A DNA stretch of 64,000 bases from the NCBI GenBank assembly GCA_013360445.1, contig JABWBP010000005.1, positions 20,487 to 84,486 on the forward strand, written 5' to 3'. Below are positions 1 through 60,470 of the stretch, piece by piece. The translations under genes were made by a program, and so were the position numbers. Source of the DNA: Calditrichaceae bacterium (GTDB lineage: Bacteria; Calditrichota; Calditrichia; RBG-13-44-9; J075). The notes under the pieces are model-generated. The model searched no databases and was not told the DNA's origin. It saw only the letters and a program-made list of their open reading frames with translations. How positions within the stretch are numbered: position 1 is the first letter of the stretch; the number at the start of each line of letters is the position of its first letter.

Positions 1-2018
1 GCGTGCTGCCAGTTCCGGGAGAGATAATTTTCGTATCCCTGCTGAAAATGCTCCAGCGTCTCGCGGATTTTCCCATCCGGCGCGTTTCCTTTCAGGGAGA
101 GCAATTCGTACACTTTCACCGGCGCCTGCTTTCCCTTTACCCGCAGCAAATCCAGTTGCCGCACCACCACTTCATCCTGCACCAGCCGGTGGGTCTCCTC
201 GCTGATCATGATCCCGGTGCCGTAAAACTTGTTCGCCCCTTCCAGGCGGGCGCCTAAGTTCACGGAGTCGCCGATGGCGGTGTAATCGAAGCGGATCTCC
301 GAACCCATGTTGCCGATCACCATCGGCCCGCTGTTGACGCCGATGCGCTGGTGCAGGTCCGGCAGGCCGCGCTTTTTCCAATCCTCGCGAATCTTTTCCA
401 ATCCTTCCTGCATCAGCAGCGCGGTGGCGCAGGCTTTCAGGGCGTGGTTGCCCACGTCGAGGGGCGCGCCGAAGATGGCCATGATCGCGTCGCCGATATA
501 TTTGTCGAGGGTTCCCTGGTTCTTCAAAACGATGTGGGTCATCTCGTTGAGGTATTCGTTGAGCAGTTTGACCAGCTCCTCCGGCGCGGTAGCTTCGGAG
601 AGGTTGGTAAACCCGGCCAGGTCCGAGAACAGCACGGTGCAGAGCTTCTTTTCCCCGCCCAATTTCACCAGCTCCGGCTTCTTCAAAAGCTCATCCACCA
701 CGTTGGAAGAGACGTAGTGGGTGAAAATGCGTTTGATTTCGCGTTTGTCGTGCTCCTCCACCCGGTAGCGGTAAGCGTAGTGAATGGCGTAGGTGAACAG
801 CACCGCCAAAAAGGGCGCGATCACCGGGAGCCAGAGGAATTTCAGGGCAAACCCCAGCCAGGCGGTCAAAAAGGCCAGCCCGTACACCGCCACGCTGGCC
901 GCCACCCCGCCCACCGGGCGCAGGAAGGCGAATACCAGCCCGGCAAAGATTCCGACCAGGAGAATGAACAGAAAGTGCCCGCCTTTGGACATCTCCCGGA
1001 TGAAGTGGTTGTTGAGAATCTGCCAGAAGACGTTCGCGTGAACCTCCACGCCCGGGAAACTGGGCTGCCAGGGGGTGGAGCGGAAGTCGCCCAGCCCCGG
1101 CGCGGAAGCGCCGATGAACACCACCTTGCCGGCGAAAAATTCCAGGGGCACTTCTTCTTTGAATAAATTATAAAAGGAGATGTAGCGAAAGGTTTTGAAG
1201 GGGCCGTGATAATAGACCAGGGTTTTGCTCTTCTCGTCCGTGGGAATGCGCACCGAGAAGCCCGAGGGGGTCAGCAGCTCCATTTCCCGGCGTTCCGGGC
1301 GCCAGTGCAATTGATCCACTTCCAATTCCCGCATGGCCATGGCCACCGCCAGGGTGGGATAGACGTGGTCGTTGAAGCGCAGGAAGAGGGGAACCCGGCG
1401 GGAGATGCCGTCTTTATCCGGGGAGAGGTTTACCGCGCCGATGCCGGCGCTGGCGTTGTGCAGATCGGGAAATTCCGGCTCCATGCGGTCGATGGCGTCG
1501 AGGCGGAACATCAGCTCATCAGGCACCTCCAGGCGGAAGCGGTCGGCCTGGAAACCGGCCGGCTCGGAGGCCATGGCCTCCAAAAAGTTGTCCACGTCCA
1601 TGGGGGTCAGCACAAAGGCGGTGAAGACGTTTCCGTGCGCCCGCGCCGCCTCCACAAAGCGTTTATCCTCCTCCGGGAAGCGGTTGCTGCGGTCGAAGAG
1701 CACATCCATGGCCACCATGCGGGCGTTAGCGCGTTTCAGGGTTTCCAGAATTTGCGCCCAGTAGGTGCGCGGCCACTGGCTGAAGGAGCCTAACTCTTTC
1801 AAAGTGCGCCCGTCGATGTCCAAAATGATAATATCTTCGATGGGATTCTGCGGCGGCTCGATGATCTTGCGCACCCGGTAGTCGTAGGTGGCGGCCTCGA
1901 ATTTGTAGAAAAACTCTCCCAGGGCCCCGAAAGTGGTCATGATCCACACTCCCAGGCTTGCCACCGCGCCCGATCCCAGCCCCATCCAGAGCTTTCGCAG
2001 AAATCTTTTTTTGCGCAT
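1..2018 (-). CDS. CHASE2-domain sensor adenylate/guanylate cyclase (class III). The N-terminus is in the window; the C-terminus runs off the window edge.
   Basis: Manual reverse-strand translation from the ATG at 2016-2018 gives MRKKRFLRKLWMGLGSGAVASLGVW (TM helix). A CHASE2-like periplasmic region and 3 further TM helices follow. The cyclase core motifs are present: LFSDLAGFT, KYIGDAIMAIFGAP, RIGVNSGPMVIGNMGS, FDYTAIGDSVNLGARLE. There is no stop before position 1, so the gene is absent from the ORF track. Confidence 0.85.
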   Translation of the reverse strand, partial: MRKKRFLRKLWMGLGSGAVASLGVWIMTTFGALGEFFYKFEAATYDYRVRKIIEPPQNPIEDIIILDIDGRTLKELGSFSQWPRTYWAQILETLKRANARMVAMDVLFDRSNRFPEEDKRFVEAARAHGNVFTAFVLTPMDVDNFLEAMASEPAGFQADRFRLEVPDELMFRLDAIDRMEPEFPDLHNASAGIGAVNLSPDKDGISRRVPLFLRFNDHVYPTLAVAMAMRELEVDQLHWRPERREMELLTPSGFSVRIPTDEKSKTLVYYHGPFKTFRYISFYNLFKEEVPLEFFAGKVVFIGASAPGLGDFRSTPWQPSFPGVEVHANVFWQILNNHFIREMSKGGHFLFILLVGIFAGLVFAFLRPVGGVAASVAVYGLAFLTAWLGFALKFLWLPVIAPFLAVLFTYAIHYAYRYRVEEHDKREIKRIFTHYVSSNVVDELLKKPELVKLGGEKKLCTVLFSDLAGFTNLSEATAPEELVKLLNEYLNEMTHIVLKNQGTLDKYIGDAIMAIFGAPLDVGNHALKACATALLMQEGLEKIREDWKKRGLPDLHQRIGVNSGPMVIGNMGSEIRFDYTAIGDSVNLGARLEGANKFYGTGIMISEETHRLVQDEVVVRQLDLLRVKGKQAPVKVYELLSLKGNAPDGKIRETLEHFQQGYENYLSRNWQH

Positions 2019-2044
2019 GCCGTCCCTTTCGCCAGAAATTGACG

Positions 2045-2058
2045 GCCTAAATTTAGGC
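2045..2058. promoter_or_regulatory. Perfect 14-bp palindrome GCCTAAATTTAGGC about 30 bp upstream of the cyclase start; possible operator site.
   Basis: Exact dyad symmetry seen directly. The position relative to the start codon at 2018 suggests a regulator binding site. Confidence 0.25.
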
Positions 2059-2157
2059 AGGCGAAGCGGATTAGCAAGGTAAAAAATATCTCGCCCGGCA
2101 ACTGTTTCAAGGCTAAAGCCTGTTCGCCCGACAGTAAACAACAGGGAGGGCGATCCG

Positions 2158-2217
2158 ATGAAAAGCATCGCTGGTGCAAAAAAGAAGCGCGCCGCGGCGC
2201 GCCTCGAAGAAGAATAG
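2158..2217 (+). CDS. Possible 19-aa small basic peptide, MKSIAGAKKKRAAARLEEE.
   Basis: ATG is preceded by a strong Shine-Dalgarno (SD) sequence, AGGGAGGG, at 6-nt spacing. It is too short to support by composition and could be chance. Confidence 0.15.
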   Translation: MKSIAGAKKKRAAARLEEE

Positions 2218-2245
2218 TTGAACGGTTTCGTTTCTGGGCCGCGTC

Positions 2246-3142
2246 TCAGCGCAGCAGCACCATCTTCCGGGTTTGCCGGTAATTTCCGGCAACGAAATGA
2301 TACAGATACACACCTGAAGCCGCTTCATTTCCCCGCTCATCCCGGCCATCCCACTTCACCCGGTGCGTTCCCGCGGGAAATTCTCCATCGGCCAGCGTTT
2401 TTACCAGCCGCCCCCGGATGTCGTAAATCTTCAGGGTAACCGCGCCGTTCATTGGCAAATCGAATTGGATGATGGTTTCCGGGTTGAAGGGGTTGGGGAA
2501 ATTCTGGTGCAAAGCATACGTCTGCGGCATGCTGCTCACCTGAACCCGTTCGAGATTGTTTTTGGCAAAGAGGGTTCCCTCTCTTTCTTTCGGGTAAAAT
2601 TCCTGGATGTGAATCCGTTGAGCCTTCCAACTGCCCAGGAGATGCTCAATGGTCTGCAATTGCAGAACTACTTCCCTGCCGACAAAGGGCTGTAAATCAA
2701 TTTCCAGTGAATCCTGCCAGCTAAACTGGGAACCGTTCAGAGAATCCAGGGCAATTTCCCGCGCGCTCAGCAAAGGTTCGCCGTTGCGATGGTCTATCAA
2801 ACGCAGGCGCAGCAAGGGCAGGTGGGGAACCGCGCCGGTCTTTCTCATATCCCGCACCCGGGCGCGCGCTTTCAGGAATGCTGATTGCACCTCACTGTCC
2901 ACAATTAGAGGAAGGGTTTGCAGGAAGCGGGAGGCGGAACCGCCTTGCGCCAACGGATCAAACCGCCAAACCCGCAGGCTGTCCGGAGTGCGAATCTGAA
3001 TATCCCCGAACAATAGCGCCGCCCGGCCTTCCAGGTTCAGGCCCGGCAAATCCTGCAAGCGGAAAAGCTCTTTGCGGTATTGTTTCTCCGCCAGGGTGCT
3101 GGCTTCCTGCCTTATAACGGAAAACCGGGAAATGAACCCCAT
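2246..3142 (-). CDS. C-terminal portion of a T9SS cargo protein (Por secretion C-terminal sorting domain). Probably the 3' part of one gene interrupted by a frameshift with 2958-4475.
   Basis: The C-terminus NFPNPFNPETIIQFDLPMNGAVTLKIYDIRGRLVKTLADGEFPAGTHRVKWDGRDERGNEAASGVYLYHFVAGNYRQTRKMVLLR is a canonical T9SS CTD. There is an in-frame stop at 3167-3169 just upstream of the annotated M. Confidence 0.6.
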   Translation of the reverse strand: MGFISRFSVIRQEASTLAEKQYRKELFRLQDLPGLNLEGRAALLFGDIQIRTPDSLRVWRFDPLAQGGSASRFLQTLPLIVDSEVQSAFLKARARVRDMRKTGAVPHLPLLRLRLIDHRNGEPLLSAREIALDSLNGSQFSWQDSLEIDLQPFVGREVVLQLQTIEHLLGSWKAQRIHIQEFYPKEREGTLFAKNNLERVQVSSMPQTYALHQNFPNPFNPETIIQFDLPMNGAVTLKIYDIRGRLVKTLADGEFPAGTHRVKWDGRDERGNEAASGVYLYHFVAGNYRQTRKMVLLR

Positions 3143-4475
3143 TTTGCTCCCGGTCCCACGCCACGCCTAACCGGAGCAACCCGGTGTGATAAGCAATGCT
3201 GGGAGAGCGGTTCTTTCCCCAGGAGGCGGTAGAGCTTAAGCGGGTTTCCGCGCTCCAGCTCTGGCCGTTGTCGGTAGAGGCGGTGTAGTAGATGTTGCCG
3301 CCGTCTTCATATACCAAATGCCAGGTTCTATCTTCATCCACTACTACCCGGCGGCCGTTGTTGTAGGCGGTGGCGGCAGCAGAGTTGCTGGCCAGGTGGC
3401 CTTTGAAATTGGCAATAACCGTGGCATTGTCCTGGGTGAAAATCACCGGGCTTTCGTAGTAGCCGTTCACCGGATTATTGGGTTCAGTGATAGTAGCATA
3501 ACTGGTTTCCCAATGTTGAAAATACCAGGTAATATTTTGCCCATGAAAAGGAATCATAGTATCCTGACGTGCACGAACAGCATAGTAAGGCTTGCCTGGT
3601 AAAACAGTTTGATTCAAAAATATTCCTTTATAAAAATCTCCAGAATTTGGTTCAATCACCAACGGTGAGGGGTGGGTATGCCAAAGGGGTGCGGTTCCGC
3701 GGTTTTGGGGAATCCCACCCAATTCCGGACCATCTGACAACCACGGGTCCTTAAAACCGATGTCTCCTTTTTCAACACTTGCAGATAACAAATATACTCC
3801 CAACGTAGCACTCTTAACCGACTTGAGCCAGGAGATCAGTTGATCCATAGAACTATCAATTAAGAAAGCTCTATAATTCAATACATCACTTTCATCATCG
3901 TTCCAGTGATGGTATTTCTCGGGAGGGTTTTCCACCAGACCCGTATCCGACCATATTGTTTCACTCTGTTGTAGAGTCAGCCAGACATGAAGGGGATCTG
4001 GAACCCACAGGTCGCGCCAGTGAGGATTGGTATAATGTTTCAAATAATTCCCGGTGAGATCCAGCATATTTTCTCTTTTGACAAATACATCGACATTTTG
4101 AGGTGTGCCCCCTTTTCCAATAGTGATGGTATCAGAAGTTACCATAAAGCCCGGACCTGTAATATCCGCATAAATTTGATAAAATTGATTCGGATGTCCA
4201 TCCGGACTAACGTGATACAAATTATATCCGGAAGATCTTATTTGGAATGGCCCGTTTGGATTGGCATACCATACATAAAAGTAATTCGCTGAAGGCGGTA
4301 TAGGGTTGCCATTCAGATACAAATCAGCATAAACTTCGGAATTCCATTCATGGCCGTTGGGATCCCAGCGAAAATCTTCCCCCCGCACTTGTACAGTATA
4401 GCCGCTTTGTGCCGATAACCTGCTTACCGGAAGCAACAGCAAGATTGAAAAAATAAGTTTGAGGTAATAATTCAT
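2958..4475 (-). CDS. Secreted BNR/Asp-box repeat protein (sialidase-like propeller start), N-terminal portion. The last ~60 residues of this frame look like an out-of-frame read-through.
   Basis: SD TAAGGAG is followed by ATG and the signal peptide MNYYLKLIFSILLLLPVSRLSAQ. A BNR motif YYTASTDNGQSWS is present. The frame after ...WDREQNG becomes low-complexity G/P/A-rich and overlaps 2246-3142 by 185 nt in another frame. Confidence 0.6.
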   Translation of the reverse strand: MNYYLKLIFSILLLLPVSRLSAQSGYTVQVRGEDFRWDPNGHEWNSEVYADLYLNGNPIPPSANYFYVWYANPNGPFQIRSSGYNLYHVSPDGHPNQFYQIYADITGPGFMVTSDTITIGKGGTPQNVDVFVKRENMLDLTGNYLKHYTNPHWRDLWVPDPLHVWLTLQQSETIWSDTGLVENPPEKYHHWNDDESDVLNYRAFLIDSSMDQLISWLKSVKSATLGVYLLSASVEKGDIGFKDPWLSDGPELGGIPQNRGTAPLWHTHPSPLVIEPNSGDFYKGIFLNQTVLPGKPYYAVRARQDTMIPFHGQNITWYFQHWETSYATITEPNNPVNGYYESPVIFTQDNATVIANFKGHLASNSAAATAYNNGRRVVVDEDRTWHLVYEDGGNIYYTASTDNGQSWSAETRLSSTASWGKNRSPSIAYHTGLLRLGVAWDREQNGVHFPVFRYKAGSQHPGGETIPQRAFPLAGFAGPEPGRPGGAIVRGYSDSHSGQPAGLAV

Positions 4476-4506
4476 GATGGTTTCTCCTTATGTTTATAAA
4501 ATGGTG

Positions 4507-5613
4507 TTAATTTCTCCTTCCCATTACCAGGACATCATGATTATCCACATATCCTACCGTTACCATGAGGTTGTCGCTTACAGCTAAACCTTCAAAAGAA
4601 CCGGTAGCCATCATTAAATCCTCATAAGTTTGCCAGCTTGATCCATTATAATGTACACATAATCCAAACGCACCGACGACAAAGATATTGTTCAAGGCGC
4701 TTCCCCGCACGCGGGTCGAGAAATAATTTGGTATGAGAATTTCTTCCCATTGATGTACTTTCCAAACCCTTAACCCACTTCCACTTACAAAAACCGGAGA
4801 GTTTATATCAAACCAGGTACTATGAAGACGACGGGATAATGTCCAATTCAAGGTATCAGCAATTCCGTTAAGCGCTATAGATAAGAGGCGGTATTCTCCC
4901 ACATAATACCGGTCAGAAACAACCGCCAAAATGGTGGTTTGCCCGGTTGCTCTATCTAAAACTCCCCAAATATCATTAATGTTGGTATGGGTGCCACTCT
5001 CAATCCGCTGCCAATTGATGCCATCGTAATAGAAGATATTGCCTTTTTTACCAACCCCCCAGAGATCAGTGTTTGAGCTTCCCCAAAATTGTCTGATTCC
5101 TCCGAATGTGGTATCATTCAGATCATCGAACAAGAATTTCCATTCACTCCAGCTTTGTCCATTAAATCTAATGACTTCACCTCCATCGGTTGTCCAAACA
5201 TCATTTGGAGCAAAAGCGAATACACTCTGCAATGTGCTGATTATGAAAGAGTTTGTGTTGAATATTTTCACTGGAATTTTTTTCAACTCCCACTTTTGCC
5301 CATCCCAATGGACTGCGTTATGGGGGTTATACTGGCCAGAGGAATCTAGTACATGAATTTCACCCACTGCCCAAATGTCGTTTTCATTAATGATACATAC
5401 ATCTTTCAGAATGCTGGCGTTTCCGTCCCCGAAACTATAGGTTGTCCAGGTAAAGTTATGGCTGGTAGTGTCGGGTTTATTGGGAGGCGGCGGGGGCGGC
5501 GGTTCGGTGCCGGATTTTTCACAACTGCAAGCCAGCAGGAGGAAATGTAAAATGTAAAATGTAAAGTGTAAAATGCGGTGAATACGAATTTCAGGAGACC
5601 GGTAGCGCATCAT
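4507..5613 (-). CDS. Lipoprotein with beta-propeller-like Trp-containing repeats (DIWAVG, NDVWTT, TDLWGVG, NDIWGV, NIFVVG).
   Basis: SD AAAGGAG lies before ATGATG. The signal peptide MMRYRSPEIRIHRILHFTFYILHFLLLAC has an LLAC lipobox, followed by a polyproline linker. There are about 5 repeats with G-x-W / WxxG spacing. The ORF track extends to 5781 but the SD supports a start at 5610-5613. Confidence 0.7.
   Translation of the reverse strand: MMRYRSPEIRIHRILHFTFYILHFLLLACSCEKSGTEPPPPPPPNKPDTTSHNFTWTTYSFGDGNASILKDVCIINENDIWAVGEIHVLDSSGQYNPHNAVHWDGQKWELKKIPVKIFNTNSFIISTLQSVFAFAPNDVWTTDGGEVIRFNGQSWSEWKFLFDDLNDTTFGGIRQFWGSSNTDLWGVGKKGNIFYYDGINWQRIESGTHTNINDIWGVLDRATGQTTILAVVSDRYYVGEYRLLSIALNGIADTLNWTLSRRLHSTWFDINSPVFVSGSGLRVWKVHQWEEILIPNYFSTRVRGSALNNIFVVGAFGLCVHYNGSSWQTYEDLMMATGSFEGLAVSDNLMVTVGYVDNHDVLVMGRRN
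5545..5575. repeat. Tandem heptamer array (TGTAAAA)x4.5 lying inside the lipoprotein signal-peptide coding region.
   Basis: aatgtaaaatgtaaaatgtaaagtgtaaaatg, seen directly. Its reverse complement encodes HFTFYILHF. Confidence 0.6.
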
Positions 5614-5985: not shown

Positions 5986-6080
5986 TTTTAAGGAGGGAGG
6001 GCGGCAACACCGCGATTAGAGCGGGAGAGGTTACGGCGGAAAGGGTGGTGGGAAAAACACGGGGTGATCGAATTGCTAAC

Positions 6081-6190
6081 TGGTTGAATGGTTGGATGGT
6101 TGGATGGCTAAGTGGTTAAACGGTCGGCTGGCCATTTAGCCATTTAACCATTTACTCATCCATCCATCAATCCATTACTCCATTACCCCA
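6081..6190. repeat. Long imperfect hairpin: TGG-word array (TTGGATGG, CTAAGTGG ...) immediately followed by its complement, a CCAT-word array.
   Basis: tggttgaatggttggatggttggatggctaagtggttaaacggtcggctgg | ccatttagccatttaaccatttactcatccatccatcaatccattactccattacc. It sits at the 3' end of the aminotransferase gene. Confidence 0.6.
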
Positions 6191-6200
6191 TGATACTCCC

Positions 6201-7769: not shown

Positions 7770-9419
7770 TTATGAAAGCGCCAGCGCCTCGGCCAGGTTT
7801 TCTTCGAATTCCCGGAGAATTTCTTTGAACTGATCGGGAGAATAGAAACTGATCTCGTGAAGCATCATTTCCGGCGCCTGCCTTTCGGAAGGCCGCCAGC
7901 GCCAGCGAAAACCGTCATCGGACTTCACCAGCGCCTTCAAACGCCGGTTTTCCCCGTCGCGCAGCAACATGGAAATATCCACCTGCACCGGGGCGCCATT
8001 CACCACCGCGGTCGCCGCAACCTGTTCGTTCTGGAACAGCCGGGGGACAAAAGAAACCGGGTATTTCGAGTAGGTTTTGAGCAAGAAATAGACGTGCAGC
8101 GCAAAGACCCACACCGGGTAAGCGGCTTCCAGGTCTTCTAATTGGAAGGGCGGCACCTGGCCTTTTTTCTTGCGCTCCTGGTAGATCACCGCCCAGAGAT
8201 CCGAGGGATTGGGGATGTAGTTATGAATGGAAATCTGGCTGATGAAGATTTCCAGGGCGTAAGTGGGCAATTTTTCGTAAGTCACGTCGCGCACGTCGGA
8301 ATTGATGATGTTCAGGTGTTCCAGGCTCTCGACAAACTTACGGTGATCCATCTCGCAAATCGCCAGCCAGTCCTCCCGGGCGCCAATGCCGCGCAGGTAG
8401 TTGAACAACTCCACCTGGTTGGCGTTTTCTAACAGCACCTGCTGCACTAAGTGTTTCCAGTTATCCAACTGGTCCTGCACCAGGAAATAATTTTCCAGAA
8501 CGCTGCGCACCTCTTTATCGGTAGAATCCTGCAAAAACAGGATCCGAAACTCTTCCACGCTTTCCTCCACGTTGCCCATTTCTAACTTCAGGAAGGCTCT
8601 TCTTTTGCGCCAGAAGTAGCTTTCCGGTTCTTTTTTCAAAATGGCGCTGATCCTGGCCAGGGCTTCTTCGTGCTGATCATTGCCGGCCAGGTAGCCGGTT
8701 TCCAGCTCTACCAGATCCAGCTCATCCAGGGAGACCAGGTGGGGCACCGATGCTTTCAGGATTTGATACACTTCCGCGGGAGATTTTTTGCCGCTCTGGC
8801 TGGAAAGCTGCAAATAGCGTTTCAAGAGGCGCTTGTTGGCGGGATCGCCCAACAGGGCGTCGCGCATTTTGGTGAAGGCCGCGGCGTGTTTGTTCAATTG
8901 CAGGAGCGCTTCCGCCTGCTGTTCCGCAAACAGGAACGGTTTGCGCAGCAGGGTTTGATATTCGCGGATGAGGTTCAGGGCTTCCTCCGCCCGGCGGTGC
9001 TCGATCATCAGGGTAACCAGGCGGGAGAGCACGTAGAGATCATTTTTGCTCTCCGTGAGCGCTTTTTCATAGTCGGTCATGGCCTTTTTGGAGTCCTGCA
9101 ATTCCTCGAAGATCTTGCCGCGCAGGAAATAAGAAAAAGGCAGGTCGGGATGGTGGCGCACCAGGCGGTTGGTCATGGTCAGCGCCTTTTCCGGCATGTC
9201 CAATTTGAGGTATAAATTAGATAAACGGGTAAGCAAATGGGGATGGTTGGGTAATTTTTCCAGGGCCAACAACAAGGTTTTTTCGGCTTTTCGATAGAGC
9301 TGCAATTCCTGAAATTCTTTTGATAGCGCCAGGTAATTCCTGAGAACCTCCGTTTCCGGAATTTGCTTGTAGATTGCTTCCATGCGAACGATCCCTGTTA
9401 AAGTGTCCCTTTGTTCCAT
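7770..9419 (-). CDS. TPR-repeat protein with an unassigned C-terminal domain.
   Basis: The N-terminal half has repeated 34-residue helical repeats with the TPR A/L/Y pattern. No catalytic motif was recognised. Confidence 0.7.
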   Translation of the reverse strand: MEQRDTLTGIVRMEAIYKQIPETEVLRNYLALSKEFQELQLYRKAEKTLLLALEKLPNHPHLLTRLSNLYLKLDMPEKALTMTNRLVRHHPDLPFSYFLRGKIFEELQDSKKAMTDYEKALTESKNDLYVLSRLVTLMIEHRRAEEALNLIREYQTLLRKPFLFAEQQAEALLQLNKHAAAFTKMRDALLGDPANKRLLKRYLQLSSQSGKKSPAEVYQILKASVPHLVSLDELDLVELETGYLAGNDQHEEALARISAILKKEPESYFWRKRRAFLKLEMGNVEESVEEFRILFLQDSTDKEVRSVLENYFLVQDQLDNWKHLVQQVLLENANQVELFNYLRGIGAREDWLAICEMDHRKFVESLEHLNIINSDVRDVTYEKLPTYALEIFISQISIHNYIPNPSDLWAVIYQERKKKGQVPPFQLEDLEAAYPVWVFALHVYFLLKTYSKYPVSFVPRLFQNEQVAATAVVNGAPVQVDISMLLRDGENRRLKALVKSDDGFRWRWRPSERQAPEMMLHEISFYSPDQFKEILREFEENLAEALALS

Positions 9420-9521
9420 ACCTCAGCCCTGAGGCATTATAACGAAGTGAGCATAATTTATACAAAACCGTCACCCCAATTTTGATGATTTGCCCAAAAT
9501 GGCGGGTGGGAAAAATAAATA

Positions 9522-9602
9522 AGTGAGAAGTGGGAGGTAAGAAGTGGCAAGTAAGAAGTGAGAAGTTGCAAGTGAAAGGTGCAAATTCTCACTTGCAACT
9601 TA
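9522..9602. repeat. GAGAAGT-word heptamer array (8 units, NNNAAGT) ending in a short complementary segment.
   Basis: gtgagaagtgggaggtaagaagtggcaagtaagaagtgagaagttgcaagtgaaaggtgcaaattctcacttgcaactt, in the divergent spacer. Confidence 0.6.
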
Positions 9603-9656
9603 CCCCGTCTTGTTTGTAAAATCAACTGGTAAGCTCACCCTCCCAAAGGAGAAATA

Positions 9657-10058
9657 ATGACCTATGAAGATTGGGTAAGGCAGGTGCCAGATAGCATCAG
9701 GATTGATCCGCTATGGGCTTTTCAGGTTTATCCGAAGGCATTGTTTCTTTCGGATTTGGCCTGGGAGGATAGTGGAAAGATGTTAAAAGATGCCCGGGGA
9801 CGCAAAATCGCCGACCAATTGATTGACAGCGCCGGCTCTGTTAGCGCAAATATCGAAGAAGGTTTTGGCAGGGGATTTGGAAAAGACTATGCACGATTCT
9901 TGAGCATCTCTTTAGGCTCTGCTCGCGAGTGTCGCGGTTGGTACTATCGAGGAAGACGGTTGCTCAGCGACAATGTTCTCCGGCATCGATATCGTCTGCT
10001 GGATGAAATAATCGCCTTGTTAACAACACATATTCAAAAGCAGCGGAAGCATAAATGA
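9657..10058 (+). CDS. Four-helix-bundle protein of the TIGR02436 family (23S rRNA-intervening-sequence protein / Avd-like).
   Basis: SD AAAGGAG at 6 nt from ATG. The central motif SAGSVSANIEEGFGRGFGKDYARFLSISLGSARECRGWYY matches the family core (SNIAEG.GR ... FL.IA.GS). Length is 133 aa. Confidence 0.8.
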   Translation: MTYEDWVRQVPDSIRIDPLWAFQVYPKALFLSDLAWEDSGKMLKDARGRKIADQLIDSAGSVSANIEEGFGRGFGKDYARFLSISLGSARECRGWYYRGRRLLSDNVLRHRYRLLDEIIALLTTHIQKQRKHK

Positions 10059-10192
10059 GAAGTTAGAAGTGAGAAGTTGCAAGTGAGAAGTTGCAGGTTG
10101 CAAGTCAGAAGTGAATCTTCACCACCCTCTCACTTCTCACTTCCCACTTCTTACTTCCTACTTCTTACTTCTCACTTGCAACTTCTCACTCC
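10056..10192. repeat. Long imperfect hairpin: forward GAGAAGT-word array, then the reverse ACTTCTC-word array.
   Basis: tgagaagttagaagtgagaagttgcaagtgagaagttgcaggttgcaagtcagaagtgaatcttcaccaccctctcacttctcacttcccacttcttacttcctacttcttacttctcacttgcaacttctcac. It starts at the stop codon of the four-helix-bundle gene and overlaps the stop of the convergent ABC gene. Confidence 0.65.
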
Positions 10193-11163
10193 CTCATCCA
10201 GCAGCGCACCTCCTGGCCGGAAGGGAGAGAAAGCGGCGGCGGGGGATCGAGCCGGCAGCGTTCCGCCGCTTCCGGGCAGCGGGGGTGAAAGGGGCAGCCG
10301 GGAGGCAGGGCGCCCGGGGAGGGAATCTGGCCGGGGATGGGCGACAGCGCGCCGCGGGGTTTGTCCAAGCCGGGGATGGTTTGCAGCAGCAGGCGGGTGT
10401 AGGGGTGCTGCGGGGAGGCAAAAATCTGCTCGATGGAGGCGCTTTCCACGATCTGCCCGGCGTACATCACTAACACGCGCTGGCACACTTCCGCAATCAC
10501 CCCCAAATCGTGGCTGATGAAGATCATGCTCATCCCGCTCTCCCGCTGCAAATTTTTCAGCAGCTCCAGGATTTGCACCTGGATGGTCACGTCCAGGGCG
10601 GTGGTCGGCTCGTCGGCGATGAGGATTTCCGGGCGGCAGGCTAAGGCCATGGCGATCATGACCCGCTGCTGCAAGCCCCCGGAAAGCTGGTGGGGATACT
10701 GCTGAAAGCGCCGTTCGGGATCGGGGATGCCCACCCGCGCGAATAATTCTAACACTTCCCGCTGCGCTTCCCGGCGGGTTTTGCCGGAGTGGAGGGTCAG
10801 CGCTTCCGCGGCCTGCTCCCCGGCCTTGAGGACCGGGTTGAGGGCGCTGAGCGCCTCCTGGAAGATCATGGCGACGCGCCGCCCGCGAACTTTTTGCAGC
10901 GCTTTCTCCGAAGCCTGCCACAAATCCTCCCCCCGGAAGAGCACGCTGCCGGAGCGGTACAGCGCCGGCGGGGAGGGCAGCAGGCGCAGCAGGCTGAGGC
11001 AGGCAACGGTCTTGCCGGAGCCGCTCTCCCCCACAATGCCCAGGGCCTCGCCGGGGTGGAGATCGAAAGAAATGTCGCGGAGGATGGGCAGGGTTCCGTT
11101 TTCGCTGCGGATGTCGAGGTGGAGATTGCGGGCTTGCAGGATGGGAGTGGTTTTTTCAACCAT
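10186..11163 (-). CDS. ABC transporter ATP-binding protein, oligopeptide/dipeptide (OppD/DppD) type.
   Basis: Walker A GESGSGKT, signature LSGGLQQR, Walker B ILIADEPTTALD, and the C-terminal oligopeptide-type extension with cysteines. Confidence 0.85.
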   Translation of the reverse strand: MVEKTTPILQARNLHLDIRSENGTLPILRDISFDLHPGEALGIVGESGSGKTVACLSLLRLLPSPPALYRSGSVLFRGEDLWQASEKALQKVRGRRVAMIFQEALSALNPVLKAGEQAAEALTLHSGKTRREAQREVLELFARVGIPDPERRFQQYPHQLSGGLQQRVMIAMALACRPEILIADEPTTALDVTIQVQILELLKNLQRESGMSMIFISHDLGVIAEVCQRVLVMYAGQIVESASIEQIFASPQHPYTRLLLQTIPGLDKPRGALSPIPGQIPSPGALPPGCPFHPRCPEAAERCRLDPPPPLSLPSGQEVRCWMRE

Positions 11164-12046: not shown

Positions 12047-12165
12047 GGTGTCCAAGTGTTTAAGTGTTCAGGTGTTATAGTGTTTTAGTATTAAGGTGCT
12101 TTCCTAAATTTCGATCACAAGACGGCCATAACACATGAACACAATAACACTTAAACACTTGATCA
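12047..12165. repeat. GTGTT-word array, then a ~30-nt loop, then the AACAC-word array (long imperfect hairpin).
   Basis: gggtgtccaagtgtttaagtgttcaggtgttatagtgttttagtattaaggtgc ... ccataacacatgaacacaataacacttaaacacttgatcac. Confidence 0.6.
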
Positions 12166-12900
12166 CTGTAGTACCCGCGGAATGGTAGTGCGGAAATCCC
12201 GGAACAGGTGGTAGGCGTTTTCCAGGTAATCGACGGCGCGATCCCACTCCCGCTCGCTAACCGCCCGCAGCAGTTGGGCGATTTCTTCCTCAACGCCCAT
12301 AAATTGGTAGAATTGCACCGTATCCAGCAAACGGGCGATCACCCGCTCCAGTTCTTTTTGATTGCGCTCGGAGATGAGACGCAGGAGGGTCAGGTAGATA
12401 TTTTCGAAGTGCAGAATGAAGCTTTCTCTCATGCGCTCGTAGGATTTGCCGGGCGGCGCGGCGAGCGGGTCCGGGGCGAGGGCCGCCTCGGTGAATTTAT
12501 TTTGCTGCTGGCGGTTCAGCAGTACGAAGTTCATCTTGCGGATCAGGTCGCCGCGTAAAAAAGGTTTGGTGATAAAATCATTGGCGCCCATCCGTAACGC
12601 CTGCATCAGGGTGGCGCTGTCGGTGCGCGAGGTGATGATGATAACCGGGATGGCGCGGGTTTTTTCCATTTTCCGCAGCCGCTCCAGGGTCTGGAAACCG
12701 TCTAAGTGGGGCATGATCACGTCTAAAAAAATTAAATCCGGGCGGTACACCAGCGCCAGTTGGATGGCATCCTCTCCGTTGGTGGCGGTAGCCACCCGGC
12801 AATCCCTGCCGGTCAGCAGGTCGGATAGAATCTGCCGGGTAACCGGGTCGTCGTCCACCACTAACACATTGATCCTGGTTTTCTCTGGCTGCGGAACCAT
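12163..12900 (-). CDS. Response regulator with a receiver domain and a C-terminal ~120-aa helical domain of unknown output.
   Basis: VLVVDDD ... D ... the receiver-fold pattern with conserved Asp and Lys positions. The C-terminal half is helical with no recognisable DNA-binding motif. Confidence 0.75.
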   Translation of the reverse strand: MVPQPEKTRINVLVVDDDPVTRQILSDLLTGRDCRVATATNGEDAIQLALVYRPDLIFLDVIMPHLDGFQTLERLRKMEKTRAIPVIIITSRTDSATLMQALRMGANDFITKPFLRGDLIRKMNFVLLNRQQQNKFTEAALAPDPLAAPPGKSYERMRESFILHFENIYLTLLRLISERNQKELERVIARLLDTVQFYQFMGVEEEIAQLLRAVSEREWDRAVDYLENAYHLFRDFRTTIPRVLQ

Positions 12901-14191: not shown

Positions 14192-14250
14192 AGGCTGTCA
14201 AATATAATGATTTCAGATACTTAAAATCAAGCTGATTTTCTTGCTGAAAA

Positions 14251-14333
14251 GTTGCGAGTGAGAAGTGGCAAGTGGCAAGTGGTAAGTGGCAAGTGAGAGG
14301 TAGTAATTCCACTTCCCACTTGCCGCTTCCCAC
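14251..14333. repeat. GAGAAGT/GGCAAGT-word array followed by its complement (hairpin).
   Basis: gttgcgagtgagaagtggcaagtggcaagtggtaagtggcaagtgagaggtagtaattccacttcccacttgccgcttcccac. Confidence 0.6.
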
Positions 14334-14426
14334 TAAATTATTGACATCCGCTTTGCAAATGGCGGAGAGGATTAGTTATATTGGCTCCCGCCATTTTGAG
14401 GGCGCCGGGCTGATAAGCGAATAAAT

Positions 14427-15272: not shown

Positions 15273-15294
15273 GGGGGGATTGGGTATTACTTAA

Positions 15295-15370
15295 AACGTG
15301 ATGCGTAAAACATAATGCGTAATAAATACGCAATATGCAATACGAATTACGAGTTATGCATCACGTTTCA
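15295..15370. repeat. CGTAA-word array followed by the TTACG-word complement (hairpin).
   Basis: acgtgatgcgtaaaacataatgcgtaataaatacgcaatatgcaatacgaattacgagttatgcatcacgt. Confidence 0.55.
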
Positions 15371-18886: not shown

Positions 18887-18934
18887 CAATTTAATTCGCA
18901 ATTGGCAATTACCAATTGGCAATTGCCAATTTAA
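18887..18934. repeat. Palindromic CAATTG-heptamer array.
   Basis: ccaatttaattcgcaattggcaattaccaattggcaattgccaatttaaaag, in the convergent spacer before ftsZ. Confidence 0.65.
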
Positions 18935-21553: not shown

Positions 21554-21625
21554 AACTGATCCTTTTGTGTGTCAGGGTCTCTGTTGCTTTGTTATTCTGC
21601 TTTGTTATTCCAAATCTGATTCTAT

Positions 21626-21733
21626 CGATGCTCGATGCTCGATACTCGATGCTCGATGCTCGATATAGATCAAATCCGCTGCCAGGTATCCGGCATCCGG
21701 CATCCAGCATCCAGTATCCAGCATCCGGCATCC
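21626..21733. repeat. ATGCTCG heptamer array (x5) followed by a CATCCRG heptamer array (x7). The two are partially complementary (GATGC/GCATC) and form a hairpin.
   Basis: cgatgctcgatgctcgatactcgatgctcgatgctcgata ... ggtatccggcatccggcatccagcatccagtatccagcatccggcatcc. Confidence 0.6.
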
Positions 21734-21739
21734 CAACTT

Positions 21740-24963: not shown

Positions 24964-25003
24964 TCTGTTTTTCCGGTGATTATGTTTTTATCCACCCGTT
25001 TTT

Positions 25004-25125
25004 CAGTAGGCAGTAGGCAGTTGGCAGTAGGCAAAAGAAACTGCGCTTCTGCCGCTTTTCACTGCAAAACTGAAGTTTTGCACTCCGGTTATTGCTTACT
25101 GCCTACTGCCTACTTGCCTACTGCT
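25004..25125. repeat. Nested element: a GTAGGCA-heptamer array, then a REP-like hairpin, then the TGCCTAC complement array.
   Basis: cagtaggcagtaggcagttggcagtaggcaa ... ctgcaaaactgaagttttgcactcc ... ttgcttactgcctactgcctacttgcctactgc. The right arm overlaps the murG stop. Confidence 0.65.
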
Positions 25126-29221: not shown

Positions 29222-29336
29222 ATTGAAAAGTGCTAAATGAAAAGTGAAAATTGCGCAGGAGATTATCCCTTTCGCTCTCTTCCCTTTACACTTCACACTT
29301 TACACTTTTCATTTTGCATTTTTCACTTTGCACTTC
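29222..29336. repeat. GTGAAAA-word array followed by the TTTTCAC/ACTTTNC complement array (hairpin).
   Basis: ttgaaaagtgctaaatgaaaagtgaaaattgcgcagg ... ctttacacttcacactttacacttttcattttgcatttttcactttgcacttc. Confidence 0.6.
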
Positions 29337-30445: not shown

Positions 30446-30461
30446 ATTTTTACCTGTTTTT

Positions 30462-30528
30462 GGGTGTTCGAGTTTTCATGTGTTCATGTTACTCGAACAC
30501 ACGAGCACTTGAACACCATAACACTCAA
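30462..30528. repeat. GTGTT-word hairpin with almost no loop.
   Basis: gggtgttcgagttttcatgtgttcatgttactcgaacacacgagcacttgaacaccataacactc. Confidence 0.6.
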
Positions 30529-31920: not shown

Positions 31921-31944
31921 CGAAGTAATTTTTAATTGCCAATT
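31921..31944. repeat. CAATTG heptamer array (short copy).
   Basis: tttttaattgccaattgccaatta. Confidence 0.55.
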
Positions 31945-32040
31945 GCCAATTATCTCCCCCGCAGACCCTTTCCGACCCCCTCCCGAAGGCATCCCCACCG
32001 TGCGGGTTGACAGGAGAGGGTCAGAAAAGGACGGGAAGTT

Positions 32041-32094
32041 AGTGTTTGAGTGTTTTCGTAACTAAAACACCTGAACACTATAACACATGAACAC
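32041..32094. repeat. GTGTT-word array with its AACAC complement.
   Basis: agtgtttgagtgttttcgtaactaaaacacctgaacactataacacatgaacac. Confidence 0.6.
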
Positions 32095-32095
32095 T

Positions 32096-39463: not shown

Positions 39464-39574
39464 GTTTCAGGTTTTGAGTTTCGAGTTTGGCGCATGGCGC
39501 ATAGAGCATAGGGCATAGCGGGGCAGTTCCGTCTTATCCTTGCGCTTTGCACTCTGCGCTCTGCGCCATGCGCC
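39464..39574. repeat. GAGTTTC heptamer x3, then a GCGCAT-word array with its ATGCGC-word complement (hairpin).
   Basis: ggttttgagtttcgagtttgg cgcatggcgcatagagcatagggcatagcg ... cgctttgcactctgcgctctgcgccatgcgcc. Confidence 0.6.
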
Positions 39575-42204: not shown

Positions 42205-42340
42205 GAGCGAGTGTTTTCGTGTGCAAGTGTTATGGTGTTCAAGTGTTCGAGTGTTATAGTGTTTTAGTGTCAGGTATTATCGTATTGAGATAACTTGAAC
42301 ACTAAAACATCATAACACCATAACACGAAAACACTCGCCC
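42205..42340. repeat. Longest GTGTT-word hairpin: 8-mer NNNGTGTT x8, a loop, then the AACAC-word complement.
   Basis: gagcgagtgttttcgtgtgcaagtgttatggtgttcaagtgttcgagtgttatagtgttttagtgtcaggtattatcg ... gataacttgaacactaaaacatcataacaccataacacgaaaacactcgccc. Confidence 0.65.
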
Positions 42341-42957: not shown

Positions 42958-43064
42958 GGGACGTAAAGTGTAAAGCGTAAATCGTAATGCGTAATTTCAT
43001 TTTCTATTCGCTTTAGATATTACCCTTTACGCATTACGTGTTACACATTACGCATTACGTTTCA
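42958..43064. repeat. CGTAAA-word array with its TTACG-word complement (hairpin).
   Basis: gacgtaaagtgtaaagcgtaaatcgtaatgcgtaatttc ... ccctttacgcattacgtgttacacattacgcattacgtttcac. Confidence 0.6.
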
Positions 43065-49624: not shown

Positions 49625-49705
49625 CATTGCTCGTACTGGATGCTCGATGCTCGATATTCGATGTTTGATGCTTGAAACGGGCCTGTTGCATCGGGCATCG
49701 GTGAA
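49625..49705. repeat. ATGCTCG-word array with a GCATCGG complement (same family as 21626-21733).
   Basis: ctcgtactggatgctcgatgctcgatattcgatgtttgatgcttg ... ttgcatcgggcatcggtg. Confidence 0.55.
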
Positions 49706-49770: not shown

Positions 49771-49808
49771 TAGAATTGGCAATTACCAATTGCCAATTGG
49801 CAATTAAA
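49771..49808. repeat. CAATTG heptamer palindromic array.
   Basis: tagaattggcaattaccaattgccaattggcaattaaaaac. Confidence 0.65.
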
Positions 49809-52629: not shown

Positions 52630-52765
52630 GTGCAGAACTGAAATTTTGCACCACAGGAGCCGCTTTGAGGCGCTCCAGCCGTTTTAATTGACAATTGGCA
52701 ATTAGCAATTGGCAATTGCCAATTATACCCTGATTGAGCGTGCAAAACTGAAGTTTTGCACTCCT
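52630..52765. repeat. A REP-like hairpin variant, then a CAATTG array, then a REP-like hairpin.
   Basis: gtgcagaactgaaattttgcac ... ttaattgacaattggcaattagcaattggcaattgccaatta ... gtgcaaaactgaagttttgcactcc. Confidence 0.65.
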
Positions 52766-60427: not shown

Positions 60428-60470
60428 TAATTGGCAATTAGCAATTGGCAATTGTCAATTGCCAATTTAA
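60428..60470. repeat. CAATTG heptamer palindromic array.
   Basis: taattggcaattagcaattggcaattgtcaattgccaattta. Confidence 0.65.

Follow-up and report, generated by a model that had tools for sequence, protein, structure and literature searches.

What is a small gene doing between two mutually complementary arrays of short tandem words, an arrangement otherwise familiar from the intervening sequences (IVSs) of 23S ribosomal RNA (rRNA), when no rRNA is present? This question is raised by a 64,000-nt stretch of Calditrichaceae bacterium DNA (contig JABWBP010000005.1; hereafter the window). It contains a TIGR02436/PF05635 (S23p/Avd-like) gene between a TPR gene and an ABC ATPase gene. IVSs that carry an open reading frame (ORF) and "four helix bundle/S23p" genes have been known since the 1990s, and their origin and function are unexplained. 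An earlier reading of this DNA (the original prediction) described the gene as a free-standing IVS-like cassette, perhaps mobile or selfish, in the loop of a giant stem. The analyses below show a conserved module: a TIGR02436 gene with a purine-rich array of words, each 7 or 8 nt long, on its 5' side and a complementary array on its 3' side, with the design of a 23S IVS but outside rRNA. We give about an even chance to the view that the arms pair and that the cassette is an RNase III-processed insert.

The gene product scored 66.6 bits against the TIGR02436 profile (cut-off 24) and 58.4 bits against PF05635 (cut-off 33.8). PF05635 has been equated with Avd of the diversity-generating retroelements (DGRs) (PMC10053308). 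The AlphaFold2 (AF2) model of the 133-residue monomer, built on 33 homologues, has four long helices and a predicted local distance difference test (pLDDT) score of 95.5. Foldseek aligned this model with 2GSC (template modelling (TM) score 0.74-0.90, rmsd 1.6-1.7), 2RLD (TM 0.70-0.89), and the DGR Avd 4DWL (TM 0.66-0.79, probability 0.99). The model thus has the four-helix-bundle fold of XCC0516 and BT_0352, and the original family assignment was correct. All 33 aligned sequences have S61, A64, N65, E67, E68, and G69, and the product carries the GxxRxxxSxxxNxxE-type motif that is conserved in the family (PMC3936711). A basic/aromatic motif, RGWYYRGR, is also conserved. The crystals of 2GSC, 2RLD, and Avd all have five chains, and 2GSC has been described as a homopentamer (PMC4990558); the known relatives form toroids of this kind. 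No transposase or recombinase domain was found in the protein by hidden Markov model (HMM) or Foldseek searches, and it is not an HUH or DDE enzyme.

The ratio of nonsynonymous to synonymous substitution (dN/dS) was 0.03-0.15 in orthologous pairs. The ORF is under strong purifying selection in these pairs, which indicates a functional protein. Selection was weaker in the lineage of the window: dN/dS was 0.33 between the window ORF and that of locus L092 (2341-2742), a metagenome variant of a 90%-related population. The L092 ORF has a premature stop at codon 29. The gene may be decaying in this lineage, like the reported Coxiella S23p. The window contains no second copy, and distant paralogues were likewise absent from the retrieved loci of relatives.

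The arrays around the gene are listed in Table 1. The 5' arm contains the words AAGTGAG, AAGTGGG, AGGTAAG, and AAGTGGC, among others, at period 7. Its complement in the downstream reverse arm matches at 78-85% over 48-60 nt. The window contains 13 copies of GAGAAGT where 4.5 are expected, a count reached in none of 100 shuffles, and eight of these copies fall in 9525-10187. The original prediction had placed forward words upstream, forward and reverse words downstream, and the ORF stop within the downstream array, which was confirmed. It had omitted two features. One is the short upstream reverse arm, which can pair locally with the last part of the 5' arm or, across the ORF, with the downstream forward arm. 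The other is that the downstream array is a complete hairpin alone, with 59-nt arms and a loop of 13-15 nt. This hairpin extends exactly from the stop of the four-helix-bundle gene to that of the convergent ABC ATPase gene, whose stop codon (TCA, 10186-10188) lies in the last word of the 3' arm. One whole word (7 nt) of the 3' arm has been gained or lost between near-identical strains. The cassette is antisense to both neighbours here, a rare orientation (4 of 69 loci). The window copy is a hairpin-plus-hairpin variant of the cassette.

Relatives were surveyed in two sets, together 160 homologous loci: a genome set of 80 loci from species-representative genomes (mostly Chloroflexota and KSB1, 56-69% identity), and a replication set of 80 independent metagenome loci. 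Among the 72 genome loci whose flanks were available, nearly all carry arrays of period 7 or 8 both upstream and downstream, and the two sides of a locus agree in period; in the metagenome set, the period was common to both sides in 39 of the 40 loci whose flanks were both periodic. Array density was 2.45/kb within 250 nt of the gene and 0.065/kb elsewhere in the same loci, a 38-fold enrichment. Typically the 5' arm ends just before the ATG, and the 3' arm begins at or just past the stop. The median aligned arm is 46 nt long, and arms hold about 5-9 words. Median distances to the ORF are 28 nt between the end of the 5' arm and the ATG, and 10.5 nt between the stop and the beginning of the 3' arm.

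Words on the downstream side are reverse complements of those upstream, for example GCAAGTTT/ACTTGCAY, AAATCGGC/GATTTGCY, GAGTCARC/GATTCGYY, and GGTGGCA/TGCCACC. In many loci (such as L013, L014, L025, L033, L044, L050, and L062) forward words occur only upstream and reverse words only downstream. Pairing is therefore possible only across the ORF in these loci. Pairing was measured as the net cofold gain, which is the energy of the two flanks pairing together minus that of each folding alone. In the genome set, the median gain was -28.5 kcal/mol, against about -14 kcal/mol for swapped or shuffled arms and -7.3 kcal/mol for ordinary ORFs of comparable length from these loci (p = 7e-15). The metagenome set gave -34.0 versus -16.9 kcal/mol. 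This measure replaced weaker ones: RNA duplexfold energies were dominated by background pairing, and shared 6-mers were limited by array redundancy. A generic hairpin classification of the flanks did not separate the architectures cleanly and was also set aside. The arms are complementary at the word-family level.

A more distant branch was sampled with the aligned part of XCC0516 (2GSC) as query. In Xanthomonas, Rhodanobacter, Pseudoxanthomonas, and Dokdonella, the gene (2001-2387 in L098-L104) lies between accB and accC, in the essential acetyl-CoA carboxylase operon; these loci include the clade of the crystallised XCC0516. The spacers are 17 nt upstream and 40-55 nt downstream of the gene. 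The upstream mini-arm is GGGAATC-GGGAATG, with the start codon within a word, and the downstream CATTCCC/GATTCCC array terminates at the accC ATG. The words covary in Rhodanobacter, with GGATTCG upstream and three to four copies of CGAATCC downstream. In the published Coxiella 23S IVS, RNase III cleaves the terminal stem, the S23p ORF lies in the loop, and two to four tandem heptamers (GACAGAT), variable in number between strains, directly precede the ATG (PMC4990558). The Coxiella S23p is reported to be decaying and is apparently untranslated. From the arms of the Chloroflexota/KSB1 and Xanthomonadales loci and the Coxiella heptamers, complementary word arms are thus found in every branch sampled, which is far from the whole Pfam family.

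The gene and its arms are inherited together, and the arms remain complementary while the words turn over. Word family and period track protein clades (67.6% vs 59.1% identity, p = 7e-41). The window protein clusters with those of L011 (a KSB1 locus) and L105-L110 (metagenome loci), at 70-77% identity; these loci share its AAGTGAG/AAGTGGC/AAGTTGC words. In L091, from a 90%-related genome, the gene is about 96% identical to that of the window, yet the words are replaced in both arms: both L091 arms are GGC-rich, and both window arms are GAG/AAG/GGG-rich. L091 also lacks a 46-nt piece of the downstream forward arm. The strains L001-L010 are near-identical, with one 7-nt indel only, and gave no covariation signal. 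On the sense strand, 87 of 88 loci have a purine-rich 5' arm, although the words differ, so arm polarity is fixed relative to the ORF.

Two side observations concern the arrays themselves. In L185 (3352-3714), two extra tandem copies of the last ~45 nt of the ORF and the first AAGTGGC words lie 3' of the ORF, and the reverse arm (four GCCACTT words) is not reached until 3686-3714, directly before a pbpC-like start; recombination between word arrays has apparently duplicated neighbouring sequence. Many short-read metagenome contigs with this gene (L003 and L006-L010) end inside the downstream array, at the counterpart of about 10076-10190. Word arrays are thus assembly breakpoints, and the cassettes are probably under-represented or truncated in metagenome-assembled genomes.

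Closely related cassettes with the same word family occupy unrelated gene neighbourhoods. At least five neighbourhoods were found for the clade of the window with its word family (Table 1). Across clades, a neighbour was shared in only 153 of 3240 locus pairs, and single genomes carry several paralogues with different words (for example L013, L014, and L054 in DAOUBA01). The closest relatives sit inside type III CRISPR adaptation modules, where AAGTGAG-type arrays still frame them. The junctions with the reverse transcriptase (RT), Cas1, and Cas6 genes differ, which suggests insertion more than a fixed functional partnership. Genes of this family had been noticed inside cas loci before (PMC3936711). 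In 47 of 69 loci, the cassette runs in the same direction as both of its neighbours, and the arms occupy nearly the whole spacer (median 82 nt upstream and 60 nt downstream). More distant TPR orthologues (71%, 59%, and 56%) have no cassette; their synteny differs too, so no exact boundary is given. In L097, CdsA abuts the TPR gene directly, with no cassette between them. A first metagenome scan with the TPR protein as query gave no match. No cassette was found on plasmids (tblastn) or viral contigs. Spread of the cassette to new sites is rare.

Folding of the window locus (9500-10210) gave a minimum free energy (MFE) of -255.5 kcal/mol (z = -6.8). In both the MFE and centroid structures, the flanks pair in two ways: upstream forward with downstream reverse arm, which is the pairing named in the original prediction, and upstream reverse with downstream forward arm. 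No candidate intrinsic terminator (GC-rich hairpin and U tract) was found in 9300-10350 on either strand, and neither an Rfam match, rRNA families included, nor a tRNA was found in the window.

On the reading of a paired, processed insert, the cassette would be transcribed, usually within a host operon, and the arms would then zip into a long imperfect duplex, with the repeated words permitting pairing in many registers. The ORF would be looped out, and the end of the upstream gene would be brought beside the start of the downstream gene. By analogy with rRNA IVSs, the duplex would probably be an RNase III substrate, and the insert might be cut from the host transcript or insulated within it. 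Such looping out or processing is proposed as the way in which the insert could persist inside essential operons.

Several results weigh against this reading. At the window locus each flank can also fold by itself, which leaves a net long-range gain of just -13.5 to -22 kcal/mol; this gain is about zero in the nearest relatives, L011 and L107. Local hairpins would form here before the long-range stem. The promoter-like site at 9593-9622, if real, would start transcription past the 5' arm and exclude that arm from the mRNA. The giant stem that was originally proposed to enclose the ORF is thus seen in the MFE structure, but its advantage over local hairpins is modest. In the survey, MFE long-range pair counts were not above swapped-arm controls (p = 0.10); this count is uninformative, since the ends of a long RNA pair with each other and purine/pyrimidine arms are common to all cassettes. 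The duplex is imperfect (~86% Watson-Crick). No excess of G.U over A.C was found among arm mismatches (149 vs 168), so selection for an RNA helix of the sense strand has left no signature there. Word variants do not run in mirrored order in the two arms: at the window locus the complements run in the same 5'->3' order (score 39.5 vs 29.5), and across 140 related loci neither order is preferred (51 vs 66). Neither arm is thus a simple inverted copy of the other. The missing G.U excess and the unmirrored order fit equally well with maintenance at the DNA level or with selection on word identity, such as recognition by a pentamer. As for mobility, the neighbours within clades are the same genes (85-99% identity), and the copies are orthologous and vertically inherited; the cassette is not demonstrably mobile on a short time scale. 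No exact-boundary empty site was obtained among the TPR orthologue loci, no target-site duplication was found (no search aimed at one was made), and no transposase or recombinase was found in or beside the cassettes. The family was covered by one subfamily (at 56-79% identity), the genomes of four Xanthomonadales, and a single published IVS.

Three other explanations were weighed. The arrays might be binding sites (RNA or single-stranded DNA) of the encoded pentamer, for autoregulation or propagation of the cassette, with arm complementarity secondary. This would account for the covariation of word family and period with protein clade, the constant purine polarity of the 5' arm despite word turnover, and the unmirrored order, in which word identity seems to be kept rather than a perfect helix. 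The ~5-9 words per arm, the resemblance to 2GSC, 2RLD, and Avd with their five-chain crystals, and the conserved RGWYYRGR motif also agree with it. However, common descent of gene and arms predicts the same covariation, the AAGTGGC word occurs with proteins of different clades (L047 vs L011), and binding alone leaves the complementarity unexplained; we regard this explanation as unlikely, though worth keeping in view. We think it slightly less likely still that the cassette is a DNA-level mobile element, whose arms would be recombination or transposition substrates (single-stranded DNA hairpins or terminal repeats) for an enzyme of the host or acting in trans, with the ORF-less hairpins of the window as non-autonomous derivatives. 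The at least five neighbourhoods for one protein clade and one word family, the few shared neighbours across clades, and the paralogues of DAOUBA01 would fit such an element, as would the G.U/A.C symmetry, the many ORF-less hairpins and dispersed word families in this genome, and the change of copy number by whole words. It is opposed by the lack of a transposase or recombinase in or beside the cassettes, a protein that is neither HUH nor DDE, the fixed polarity and unmirrored repeats of the arms, positions that are stable across species, and the absence from viral contigs and plasmids. The other word families of the window, at least eight in number, likewise have no four-helix-bundle gene nearby. 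The mobility in the original prediction is thus not established: it is inferred from distribution over unrelated neighbourhoods, and within clades the positions are conserved and vertically inherited.

The remaining explanation is coincidence: two ordinary local word hairpins, for example mRNA 3'-end or stability structures between convergent genes, might flank a small gene by chance. About 17 intergenic word hairpins were found in the 64 kb by Tandem Repeats Finder (TRF) and periodicity scans, with word families differing by site; the downstream hairpin is self-contained from stop to stop, the upstream array has its own small fold-back, and the long-range gain at the locus can be as small as -13.5 kcal/mol. 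Against chance, both flanks carry the same word family whereas most other window hairpins use different words, the same arrangement and words recur in relatives at other sites and in other phyla, and arrays are 38-fold enriched beside this gene family. Coincidence is strongly disfavoured by the family-wide association, and we consider it very improbable. The reading as a free-standing IVS-like cassette is largely supported by the module conserved in both locus sets and in Xanthomonadales and by the Coxiella heptamers; the caveats at the window copy are the small long-range gain, the promoter-like site, and the many ORF-less hairpins of this genome with other words. The original interpretation as a whole is partly supported.

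Among the nearest known systems, the 23S rRNA IVSs (Leptospira, Coxiella, Brucella, and Haemophilus) share the design of the cassette. Both have a PF05635 protein, complementary termini that form a stem around the ORF (in silico only for the cassette), and a position nested in a host transcription unit, and the Coxiella IVS has heptamers 5' of its ORF. The cassette differs in lying outside rRNA, between TPR and ABC ATPase genes rather than in helix 25 or 45, and so does not belong to the IVSs in the strict sense. Its arms are arrays of 4-10 words, whereas the IVS stem is 28 bp of unique sequence, and its ORF is under strong purifying selection, whereas the Coxiella S23p is reported to be decaying. 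Short tandemly repeated repetitive (STRR) heptanucleotides are said to have been described by Mazel et al. in 1990 and Vioque in 1997 in heterocystous cyanobacteria, where they are reportedly intergenic, fall into several word families within one genome, and commonly fold as hairpins. The ORF-less hairpins of the window agree with the STRRs in being tandem 7-nt intergenic words of several families. The hosts here are Calditrichota, Chloroflexota, KSB1, and Xanthomonadales rather than cyanobacteria, octamer words occur too, and the arrays are complementary across an ORF; STRRs are, to our knowledge, not tied to a particular flanked gene.

Repetitive extragenic palindromes (REPs), their hairpin-forming doublets (REPINs), and REP-associated tyrosine transposases (RAYTs) also place a small gene between inverted short-repeat copies and pair distinct gene clades with distinct repeat sequences, and the DNA-level reading above would liken the arms to REPs that flank a RAYT gene. 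The REP repeat is dispersed as ORF-less intergenic hairpins; for the cassette words, the window has one further hairpin (14245-14334). The cassette protein is a four-helix bundle, not an HUH (Y1) tyrosine transposase, so the cassette is not a REP/RAYT system; its arms are tandem word arrays, and most ORF-less window hairpins use other words. The DGR Avd has the same fold (4DWL), and some close relatives of the window gene adjoin an RT in RT-Cas1 modules. These adjacent RTs belong to CRISPR adaptation modules, not DGRs, and most cassettes lie among housekeeping genes. As originally stated, no RT is nearby and the cassette is not a DGR: tblastn with three RTs from related loci gave no real match in the window, where template and variable repeats were not searched. 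The arms lack the mirrored terminal repeats of a terminal-inverted-repeat transposon or miniature inverted-repeat transposable element, as they are tandem word arrays with unmirrored variant order. No paper linking the TIGR02436/PF05635 family to flanking word arrays was found in full-text searching, in which subscription journals were thinly covered. What appears to be new here is the four-helix-bundle gene and complementary word arrays as a module outside rRNA; an earlier description cannot be excluded.

The other word hairpins of the window (Table 1) belong to at least eight word families, such as TCGATGC/GCATCCR, CAGTAGG/CCTACTG, AGTGTTnn/nnAACACT, and GCGCATA/TGCGCTC. Only one, at 14245-14334, uses the word family of the cassette. 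The original suggestion that the cassette is a source of the GAGAAGT family depends on this single hairpin and has almost no support. The hairpin at 6070-6193 is only half kept in L091 owing to a rearrangement, and is uninformative on conservation. Two dispersed repeats were also observed. The AATTGSC heptamer has 35 matches in the window against 0.08 expected, with five arrays (18893-18931, 31927-31952, 49774-49806, 52686-52725, and 60429-60468); because AATTGGC and AATTGCC words alternate, these arrays are self-complementary, and each is a hairpin alone. The REP-like perfect palindrome GTGCAAAACTGAAGTTTTGCAC (22 nt) has nine sites, with none expected, often paired 40-145 nt apart; the copy at 25062 lies within the loop of the CAGTAGG hairpin, and the copy at 52740 beside an AATTGSC array. 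In L091 (931-1290), a 340-nt spacer separates cdsA from the ABC ATPase gene, two genes that overlap in the window (11156-11163). Within this spacer lie a word-like, purine-rich run (GGAGTGAGAGTATTGGAGGGATGGG...) and a strong hairpin that resembles a terminator. Structured DNA between genes is thus acquired or lost fast in the lineage of the window.

Table 1. Features of the window and gene contexts of its cassette clade (window positions count from its first letter; L-numbers are survey loci)
Feature	Position or locus	Strand	Basis
Upstream (5') arm, nine purine-rich heptamers, AAGTGAG/AAGTGGC/AAGTTGC family	9519..9583	+	Periodicity and complementarity to 10128-10190
Short upstream reverse arm (TTCTCACTTGCAACTTAC), 18 nt	9586..9603	+	Inverted-repeat search, folding
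Sole sigma70-like promoter match, TTGCAA-18-TAAAAT, weak, chance frequency (1 found, 0.7 expected)	9593..9622	+	Promoter scan
Shine-Dalgarno-like AAGGAG, 5 nt before ATG	9646..9651	+	Read from sequence
Four-helix-bundle gene (TIGR02436/PF05635, S23p/Avd-like), 133 aa	9657..10058	+	Profile HMM, AF2 model, Foldseek
Downstream forward arm, first word contains the TGA stop of the ORF	10056..10114	+	Repeat and inverted-repeat scans
Loop of downstream hairpin	10115..10127		Inverted-repeat search
Downstream reverse (3') arm, nine pyrimidine-rich words (CTCACTT, CTTACTT, GCAACTT ...)	10128..10190	+	Repeat scans
ORF-less word hairpins, 7/8-nt words	6070-6193, 12048-12166, 14245-14334, 15290-15345, 21622-21735		Repeat and hairpin scans
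ORF-less word hairpins, 7/8-nt words	25003-25124, 29224-29335, 30460-30520, 32060-32095		Repeat and hairpin scans
ORF-less word hairpins, 7/8-nt words	39490-39574, 42210-42334, 42962-43060, 49628-49700		Repeat and hairpin scans
Palindrome GTGCAAAACTGAAGTTTTGCAC, 22 nt each	16428, 16468, 20222, 20292, 25062, 52630, 52740, 54649, 54793		
Context TPR/ABC	window, L091		
Context alpha2-macroglobulin/pbpC	L105, L185		
Context RT/Cas1	L011 (1703-4519); L108/L189 and L188 (both about 1850-4613)		
Context upstream of Cas1, upstream neighbour not captured	L107		
Context Cas6/RT	L109 (125-3569)		

A wider interpretation may be offered, to which we give a low probability. The TIGR02436 genes, very abundant and without an assigned function for 30 years, might be the cargo of an unrecognised self-insulating insertion. 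The arrays would loop the insert from host transcripts (rRNA, accBC, and cas), and the pentamer would recognise its own words to control or propagate the cassette. The rRNA IVSs and STRR-like hairpins would then be special cases or remnants. The finding links three old oddities: the rRNA IVSs, the orphan four-helix-bundle family, and the heptamer repeat arrays. The reported association of the family with cas genes may reflect insertion rather than function. Xanthomonas is a tractable system for these questions, since XCC0516, with its structure solved, lies between accB and accC with mini-arms. If the gene always travels with complementary arrays, the rRNA IVSs would be one case of a general insert tolerated in operons, even essential ones, and STRR-like heptamer hairpins would have a possible origin.

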